951 nt of DNA, taken from NCBI RefSeq assembly GCF_003334765.1, contig NZ_QOWT01000092.1; one strand, given 5' to 3'. Origin of the DNA: Escherichia coli (GTDB lineage: Bacteria > Pseudomonadota > Gammaproteobacteria > Enterobacterales > Enterobacteriaceae). Below the pieces are notes generated by a model. The model had not been told where the DNA came from. It ran no database searches and saw only the letters and a program-made list of their open reading frames with translations. Below are positions 1 through 951 of the stretch, in pieces (position 1 is the first letter of the stretch; each line of letters begins with the position of its first letter). A program made the position numbers and the translations under genes.

Positions 1-7
1 GAGTTTT

Positions 8-358
8 TTACAACATTGTCAGTGAGTTAAGGCGGGATGTTTTTGGCTGACGCCAGTCCAGCTTATCGAGGAGCATTGCCAGTTGCGAGCGGGTAATGGA
101 TATCTTACCGTCACGCACCGCAGGCCAGATAAACTGACCTTCCTCAAGGCGTTTGGTGAACAGGCACAGACCATCAGCATCAGCCCACAGGATTTTAATC
201 GTGTCTCCCCGTCGGCCACGGAAGATAAACAGGTGACCGGAGAAGGGGTTATCATCCAGCACATGCTGTATCTGCTCCCCCAGACCGTTGAAGGATTTAC
301 GCATATCAGTAACGCCGGCAACGAGCCAGATACGGGTACCTGATGGGAGTGAAATCAT
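8..358 (-). CDS. tnpB: IS66-family accessory protein TnpB (IS66 Orf2-like), 116 aa
   Basis: The ORF 8..358 translates to MISLPSGTRIWLVAGVTDMRKSFNGLGEQ...GHLFIFRGRRGDTIKILWADADGLCLFTKRLEEGQFIWP, recognised from memory as the conserved IS66 Orf2-like TnpB signature. Start ATG is the complement of 356..358 and stop TAA the complement of 8..10. A strong Shine-Dalgarno GGAGG (complement of 364..368) sits 5 nt upstream of the ATG. Confidence 0.9.
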   Translation of the reverse strand: MISLPSGTRIWLVAGVTDMRKSFNGLGEQIQHVLDDNPFSGHLFIFRGRRGDTIKILWADADGLCLFTKRLEEGQFIWPAVRDGKISITRSQLAMLLDKLDWRQPKTSRLNSLTML

Positions 359-789
359 CGTCCCCTCCCGGTCAGCTCACGGATCAACACCGTGAGCAGC
401 TCTGGTGAAGGATTTTCCAGCATCATTTTACCGTAATGGAATTCCACATGGCAGGAAGCTGCACAAGCAACTGATAATGCCTCCGGAGCAGGAGCATCTG
501 TAGCACAGCGCGGGGTGTCGATAAGTTCCACTGGAACCAGAGTCGGAGAGGCCGGAAAAGATTGTGATACTGTAGGGCCTACAATAGTTGGAGGCATTCT
601 ACGAGAAATACGTCCTTCTCTTTGCCAGAGGCGTAGCCATTTAAAAATCAGGTTGTTATCAACGCCATGTTCCCGGGCCAGTTGTGCAACATTGGCATTT
701 GGTTTCGAAGCCAGTTCAACCATATGAAGTTTAAATTCATTAGAAAATATCCGGCGGGTTCCGGAGCGCCAGTCTGTAGGTTTATCCAT
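355..789 (-). CDS. tnpA: IS66-family accessory protein TnpA (orfA, predicted helix-turn-helix DNA-binding protein), about 144 aa
   Basis: The translation MDKPTDWRSGTRRIFSNEFKLHMVELASKPNANVAQLAREHGVDNNLIFKWLRLWQREG has the N-terminal HTH-like region typical of IS66 TnpA. I place the start at the ATG that is the complement of 787..789, because GGAG (complement of 798..801) lies 8 nt upstream. The ORF track begins one codon earlier at a TTG (790..792), which leaves no spacer after the SD. Stop TGA is the complement of 355..357 and overlaps the tnpB ATG. Confidence 0.85.
   Translation of the reverse strand: MDKPTDWRSGTRRIFSNEFKLHMVELASKPNANVAQLAREHGVDNNLIFKWLRLWQREGRISRRMPPTIVGPTVSQSFPASPTLVPVELIDTPRCATDAPAPEALSVACAASCHVEFHYGKMMLENPSPELLTVLIRELTGRGR
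364..368 (-). promoter_or_regulatory. Shine-Dalgarno site for tnpB, embedded in the 3' end of tnpA
   Basis: Minus-strand GGAGG followed by a 5 nt spacer and then the tnpB ATG. Together with the ATGA overlap this suggests translational coupling. Confidence 0.55.
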
Positions 790-797
790 CAATAGAA

Positions 798-801
798 CTC
801 C
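798..801 (-). promoter_or_regulatory. Shine-Dalgarno site for tnpA
   Basis: Minus-strand GGAG followed by the 8 nt spacer TTCTATTG and then the ATG at 787..789. Confidence 0.55.
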
Positions 802-802
802 G

Positions 803-840
803 TCTAATTTAGAAGGAGCTCTAATTTAGTCTGCAAGGAG
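803..840. repeat. Direct repeat pair in the tnpA leader: tctaatttag at 803..812 and 820..829, each followed by aaggag (813..818 and 835..840)
   Basis: Seen directly in the sequence: a perfect 10 bp direct repeat with a 17 bp period, lying between the putative IS end and the tnpA ribosome-binding site. Confidence 0.6.
806..836 (-). promoter_or_regulatory. Tentative sigma70-like promoter for tnpA-tnpB
   Basis: Minus-strand TTGCAG (complement of 831..836) as a -35-like hexamer, followed after 18 to 19 bp by CTAAAT or TAAATT (complement of 806..812) as a weak -10. Matches to consensus are poor, so this is only a guess at where the IS promoter lies. Confidence 0.2.
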
Positions 841-848
841 CAGGTGTT

Positions 849-874
849 ACAGACGGCATTGGCTTTACGCTTAC
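849..874 (-). repeat. Putative left terminal inverted repeat (IRL) of the IS66-family element; exact length not determinable
   Basis: The minus strand reads GTAAGCGTAAAGCCAATGCCGTCTGT from 874 downward. IS66-family termini characteristically begin with GTAA, often GTAAGCG. The inner boundary is arbitrary because the right end is not available for comparison. Confidence 0.45.
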
Positions 875-951
875 CCATAGAGGCGGATATAAGGGGAATG
901 CCGGCAGAGCAGCGGCTTGCTGAACGTCAGCGAAAAACGAAACCGCTGTTG

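Follow-up and report, generated by a model that had tools for sequence, protein, structure and literature searches.

Insertion sequences of the IS66 family are characterised by terminal inverted repeats of 20–30 bp beginning with GTAAGCG and by 8-bp direct repeats (PMC11946415), and their later history can be read from these same features. In Agrobacterium pAt15955, a single IS66 with mismatched 8-bp flanks is the footprint of recombination between two copies, each octamer representing one half of a separate original insertion site (PMC6778807). A cleanly preserved arrangement is found on the pig-derived plasmid NZ_CP062870.1 (L011, 3410-5941), in which ISEc23, a close relative of ISEc43, is nested within the tnpC gene of ISEc8, an independent insertion of one IS66-family element into another with ISEc8 kept on both sides and a perfect 8-bp duplication, GAATGACG. 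The window analysed here, that is the whole stretch of 951 nucleotides, joins ISEc43 to ISEc8, likewise in opposite orientation, at a different position of tnpC. In our reading, to which we assign a probability of about 0.9, it joins the left end of ISEc43 to an inert 3' remnant of ISEc8 lying in the opposite orientation, with non-cognate flanks and at a junction that was rearranged after insertion. The junction is an ordinary and already annotated meeting of two insertion-sequence pieces, both of which are recorded in RefSeq, and is itself without function.

The names ISEc43 and ISEc8 are those of the RefSeq/PGAP annotation. Positions 1..874 (minus strand) were recognised, by comparison with reference copies, as the left part of ISEc43, 874 bp of a 2,541-bp IS66-family element: 873 of the 874 bases equal those of the reference copies, including one whose tnpC is named ISEc43 family in RefSeq, so that near-identity to a RefSeq-named copy extends over all of these bases of the window. 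The sole mismatch to the reference copies (L001, L004) is at nt 25, where the window has A and they have C; the substitution changes Ala to Ser in TnpB (...NALTML to ...NSLTML), five residues before the C-terminus. The locus of E. coli 55989 matches ISEc43 nt 219-2541 with 100% identity. Two genes of the element lie in the window. The tnpA gene, coding for an accessory protein (355..792, minus; supported by the ORF, NCBIfam and RefSeq), starts from the ATG at 789 in RefSeq, while the longest ORF begins with the TTG at 792; its product matches the NCBIfam IS66 TnpA models with E=1e-18 and 2.7e-17, both under the curated cut-offs (68 against 74 bits), and WP_001309734.1 is annotated at the equivalent position. 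The tnpB gene (8..358, minus; NF033819 and annotation) shares 4 nt with the end of tnpA and encodes the IS66-family accessory protein TnpB, which scores 119 bits on NF033819 IS66_TnpB (cut-off 50). In the full ISEc43 tnpC follows, named in RefSeq 'IS66-like element ISEc43 family transposase', and its product scores 448 bits on NF033517 (cut-off 180). The element has, therefore, the consecutive tnpA-tnpB-tnpC order with overlapping tnpA and tnpB of the IS66 family, and the window shares with the ISEc43 copies of E. coli O103:H2 FWSEC0007, O104:H4 C227-11 and others the tnpA-tnpB order, the inverted repeat initiated by GTAAGCG and the terminus.

The original prediction had placed an IS66 left-end junction at about 874/875, with GTAAGCG marking the terminus. 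This motif occurs once in the window (868..874, minus strand, base 874 being the last base of the element), with 0.10 occurrences expected by chance, and at least one match appeared in 16 of 200 shuffles; the motif alone is weak evidence, and hence the terminus was judged on independent copies, the comparative evidence being decisive. Four ISEc43-type copies in unrelated contexts were compared base by base, one on an O103:H2 chromosome (L004), two on plasmids (L005 and L006) and one on a further chromosome (L007): all have ...GGCTTTACGCTTAC in common and diverge totally from the base equivalent to window position 875. When 600..951 was searched by BLAST in 5,426 complete E. coli genomes, IS copies with other surroundings stopped at query 275/276, corresponding to window 874/875, and ISEc8 tnpC copies started at query 272/273. 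A junction shifted to 871/872, with 3-4 bp of ISEc8 overlapping into the IS end, was considered and rejected, the overlap arising from a chance TAC across which BLAST had extended a gapped alignment. The four independent copies and the BLAST end-points thus agree with the predicted position, and the divergence of the copies from 875 onward confirms that 875..951 lies outside the element that ends with GTAAGCG. The left inverted repeat (IRL; 848..874, minus), delimited by alignment with the right one (IRR), is imperfect: GTAAGCGTAAAGCC... and GTAAGCGTCAACGG... are identical in their first 8 nt (GTAAGCGT) and match overall at ~15/27 positions, the repeat extending to ~27 nt, within the 20–30 bp of the family and with its GTAAGCG start. 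On this comparative basis, GTAAGCG at 868..874 is the exact left terminus of ISEc43.

What lies beyond the terminus had been left undecided by the original prediction among a gene start, the interior of a longer gene and intergenic DNA, and had been regarded as the only route by which the window could lead to something unusual. The 77 bases of the flank (875..951, plus) are all identical to the annotated interior of ISEc8 tnpC, with the reading frame continued, and correspond to ISEc8 nt 1952-2028 and to codons 362-387 of 512; this stretch is found in 3,297 genomes. In an intact ISEc8 (L003, 2,443 bp), an IS66-family element frequently found in E. coli O157:H7 and on plasmids of the pO157 type, window position 875 is nt 1952 of the element, and ...GTTGTACG runs unbroken into CCATAGAGGCGG... 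at this point. The translation of 877..951, IEADIRGMPAEQRLAERQRKTKPLL, corresponds to residues 363-387 of the 512 of ISEc8 TnpC. Hence, of the three options the interior of a longer gene was the right one, that gene being ISEc8 tnpC. Of the 2,443 bp of ISEc8, the junction locus retains no more than the final 492, in opposite orientation to ISEc43 and, in 55989, reaching the ISEc8 right terminus ...GCTGTACGCTTAC at L001 9366; tnpA, tnpB and tnpC up to codon 361 are missing. The 150-aa translation of the remnant covers model positions 259-384 of the 387 of NF033517, and RefSeq annotates the fragment as an IS66-family transposase pseudogene, incomplete and with its N-terminus missing, starting at window position 877. 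The flank therefore leads to another IS66-family remnant, a pseudogene that was already annotated, and not to the unusual content that had been hoped for; the question is closed, and 875..951 is neither host DNA nor the start of a host or novel gene.

The second expectation concerned the 8 bp adjoining the terminus, CCATAGAG (875..882, plus), which had been proposed as one copy of the target-site duplication. The far IS end of the window's own copy lies outside its 951 bases, and the result that follows is transferred from near-identical loci. In O104:H4 C227-11 (L014), ISEc43 is intact and uninterrupted, with 100% identity over 2,541 bp, and is flanked by TAATAGTC outside the IRR and by CCATAGAG outside the IRL. 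In 042 (L012) and HH35 (L013), the right end is present and is split from the rest of the element only by an insertion of ISEc45; in all of L012, L013 and L014 the right end is bordered by the octamer TAATAGTC, beyond which follows DNA other than ISEc8, so CCATAGAG does not recur at the other end and the proposal fails. 55989 provides no far-end comparison, the right 218 bp of ISEc43 being missing there. The corresponding empty site is present in JE86-ST05 and E41-1, where ...GGAGTAATAGTC is directly followed by CAAAGTATC..., leading toward sat, and where TAATAGTC and CAAAGTATC... form contiguous non-ISEc8 DNA. Perfect 8-bp duplications are the rule at copies of the ISEc43/ISEc23 type, namely AAATAAGT (L004), GAACAATA (L007), GAATAAAG (L009) and, at ISEc23 copies, GAATGACG (L011) and AAAGTATC (L021). 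The 8-bp duplication typical of the IS66 family is thus a property of the element type, and flanks the ISEc43 copies of L004 and L007, whereas it is lacking in the copy at this locus (CCATAGAG versus TAATAGTC); its absence concerns the later history of this copy of ISEc43 and not its membership of the IS66 family. Since TAATAGTC adjoins the IRR and CCATAGAG the IRL, the flanks are non-cognate, and the junction therefore does not represent a single insertion preserved intact.

The missing partners were sought in the 5,426 complete E. coli genomes. The reciprocal junction, ISEc8-5' followed by CCATAGAG and the ISEc43 IRR, had no contiguous match in these genomes, and two '100%' rows each turned out to be two pieces joined over 223-479 bp. 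The cognate left junction, IRL followed by TAATAGTCCAAAG, also had no contiguous match in the 5,426 genomes, its top rows consisting of two pieces that span 198 bp. Some IS66 insertion sites are preceded by a TACG-like string, which was set aside as a selection effect, as the rows concerned rank high by extending the alignment.

These results bear directly on the simplest account of the locus, that of the original prediction, in which ISEc43 still sits within ISEc8 tnpC with ISEc8 and a duplicated CCATAGAG on both sides. The exact terminus and a flank that is a plausible target speak for it, as does the fact that IS66-family elements do nest in ISEc8 tnpC, as ISEc23 does in L011 with its duplication GAATGACG; the original event may well have been an insertion of this kind. 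As a description of the present locus it is, nevertheless, highly improbable: an intact nested insertion has the host element and the same 8 bp on both sides, and no ISEc8 lies outside the right end of ISEc43, every locus in which that end is present showing TAATAGTC and non-ISEc8 DNA there, and the reciprocal junction is without a contiguous match in the genomes searched. A further alternative starts from the ATG at 898..900 (plus), for which the original prediction had correctly noted a frame open to the window edge, confirmed by the translation given above, and a Shine-Dalgarno candidate too near to it, AAGGGG at 891..896, 1 nt away. One might suppose that this ATG begins a real small gene, by which a C-terminal TnpC fragment is expressed from the junction, given the open frame of ~143 codons that runs from it to the ISEc8 tnpC stop and the purine-rich AAGGGG upstream. 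We consider this improbable in the extreme, as the ATG encodes Met370, a conserved internal residue of the 512-aa TnpC, in the same frame as the RefSeq pseudogene, so that the option of a gene start falls; AAGGGG is merely 1 nt from it, no sigma-70-like promoter was found in 700..951, RefSeq marks the fragment as an incomplete pseudogene, and only part of the IS66 transposase model is spanned. Lacking its N-terminal 361 codons, a usable ribosome-binding site and a promoter signal, the tnpC fragment is a pseudogene.

A third account gives the junction a greater role and rests on the fact that strains of the O104:H4 type carry two near-identical pic modules at distant chromosomal loci (L012 8872-14058 compared with L018 7352-12539, 99.87% over 5,187 bp; L014 7596-10057 was likewise compared with L018 7352-9814). 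According to it, a pair of IS66-family elements with inward-facing left ends, one of them ISEc43, would have bracketed the 5.19-kb pic module and moved it to this locus as a composite transposon, with a duplication at the outer ends; the second chromosomal copy of the pic toxin module in EAEC and O104:H4 would thus be the work of a now decayed IS66-family transposon, and 874/875 would, if this were true, form the inner border of a transposon carrying a virulence gene instead of being mere IS debris. The shared module is in fact bounded on both sides, at the first locus, by inward-facing IS66-type left termini, those of ISEc43 (L012 8874) and of a 54-bp ISEc23-like remnant (L012 14059-14112), each of which cuts another IS that continues at the second locus, and an empty site exists for the outer end of ISEc43. 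We regard this account as a long shot, because the outer junction that it predicts, an IS66 IRR followed by TAATAGTC and CAAAG..., was not found, because the right-hand IS is only a 54-bp stump with which the model cannot be completed, and because two independent insertions followed by deletions explain the same facts. The 35 single-piece hits to the outer junction, IRR followed by TAATAGTCCAAAG, were discarded as an ordinary and unrelated ISEc23 insertion with its own duplication, AAAGTATC. The far IS66-type junction beyond pic was also compared with the sat island of JE86, and it is not shared.

The preferred reading remains a junction that was rearranged after the insertion of ISEc43. In the sequence of events that we propose, a single insertion of ISEc43, into either the TAATAGTC site or ISEc8, would have generated an 8-bp duplication, and one flank would then have been exchanged, by homologous recombination with another copy of ISEc43 or by an adjacent deletion mediated by the IS end. 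Non-cognate flanks are the usual footprint of either process. The similarity to the IS66 of pAt15955 (PMC6778807) is evident, as in both cases an intact IS66-family element is flanked by differing octamers; there, however, the two parental copies were seen, each with a duplication of its own, whereas neither parental junction was found for the ISEc43 locus, and it follows that an IS-end-mediated adjacent deletion is here equally possible as recombination between copies. Identities, coordinates and the absence of the duplication were read directly from the records; as no ancestral intermediate was found, we infer the direction and the mechanism of the rearrangement, and likewise the order of events and which of the two processes took place. 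The second pic module (L018), located near iuc in strains of the O104:H4 type, keeps ISEc8 nt 1752-2443 and is 99.96% identical to the first locus, the identity beginning exactly at the ISEc43 terminus. Since more of ISEc8 is kept in the second module, ISEc8 sequence was lost at the junction of the first locus. The locus offers in this respect a worked example of how an exact IS terminus is no guarantee of an intact insertion, mismatched 8-bp flanks being the mark of later recombination or deletion.

Full-length matches to the window, at 99.9%, are found in E. coli 55989, 042, O104:H4 and others, one base differing from every listed genome, and the junction is present in ~35 complete genomes; no record of the plasmid collection has it. 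It lies in an IS-rich region just upstream of pic, which encodes a SPATE autotransporter, in E. coli of the enteroaggregative type (55989, 042, O104:H4), in the order ISEc43 (genes on the minus strand), ISEc8 3' remnant, IS256/IS1414-type remnant and pic. The region of the pic island is a mosaic built up by repeated events of the IS66, IS110 and IS3 families, and this is relevant to how strains of the O104:H4 type came by two copies of pic. The ISEc8 right end and the IS256/IS1414-type remnant (L001 9367-9643) were also observed, with 95% identity and an extra insertion, in the prophage Sp9 regions of O157:H7 Sakai (H254), from which the adjacency of ISEc8 and IS1414 seems to be older than the arrangement of the pic island. 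In different strains, sat (L015 5868-9755) and pic (L012 9760-10625) occupy an equivalent position and orientation downstream of the same 57-bp flank, and their 3' ends, coding for the beta-domain, are 76% identical; the sat and pic islands resemble alleles of a single scaffold.

At this locus a discrepancy exists between two assemblies of the 2011 outbreak clone, and some assemblies of the repeat-rich region may thus be imperfect. In C227-11 (L014 5058-8090), an intact ISEc43 is fused to ISEc8 nt 1952, while 2011C-3493 (L016 4112-6496), and also 2009EL-2050, have at the same locus ISEc43 nt 1-609, an IS100 fragment and ISEc8 nt 1752-2443, an arrangement equal to the interior of the second pic locus. 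The difference between C227-11 and 2011C-3493 may be due to gene conversion or to assembly collapse. The arrangement in which ISEc8 nt 1752-2443 lies next to pic behind the IS100 fragment ('Form B') was considered as the ancestral state of the locus and rejected, the same module being found at the second pic locus of Form A strains.

Further traces of IS66- and IS110-family activity were observed nearby. An apparent hotspot for IS66-family insertion lies upstream of sat/pic, with four different IS66-type termini within ~60 bp (L015 about 4990-5060; L021 1500-1545 and 4064-4075; L014 5050-5060): an ISEc23-like IRL stump, an ISEc8-type end, the ISEc43 IRR after TAATAGTC, and ISEc23, with the duplication AAAGTATC, only 1 bp away. 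At L012 4830-4845 there is a 16-bp scar, CTCCGTTAACGCTTAC, which, apart from one mismatch, reads as nt 1-16 of the ISEc43/ISEc23 IRR in reverse complement and is missing from the otherwise identical sequence of JE86 (L015). Finally, ISEc45, a member of the IS110 family, interrupts the diverged right ends of ISEc23-type elements and of ISEc43 at one common point, nt 218/219 of ISEc43 after ...GAAGAACACGTA (L012 2984/2985 and 5105/5106; L018 about 2922), and this shared position suggests a sequence-specific targeting of the 3' ends of IS66-family tnpC genes by an IS110-family element.
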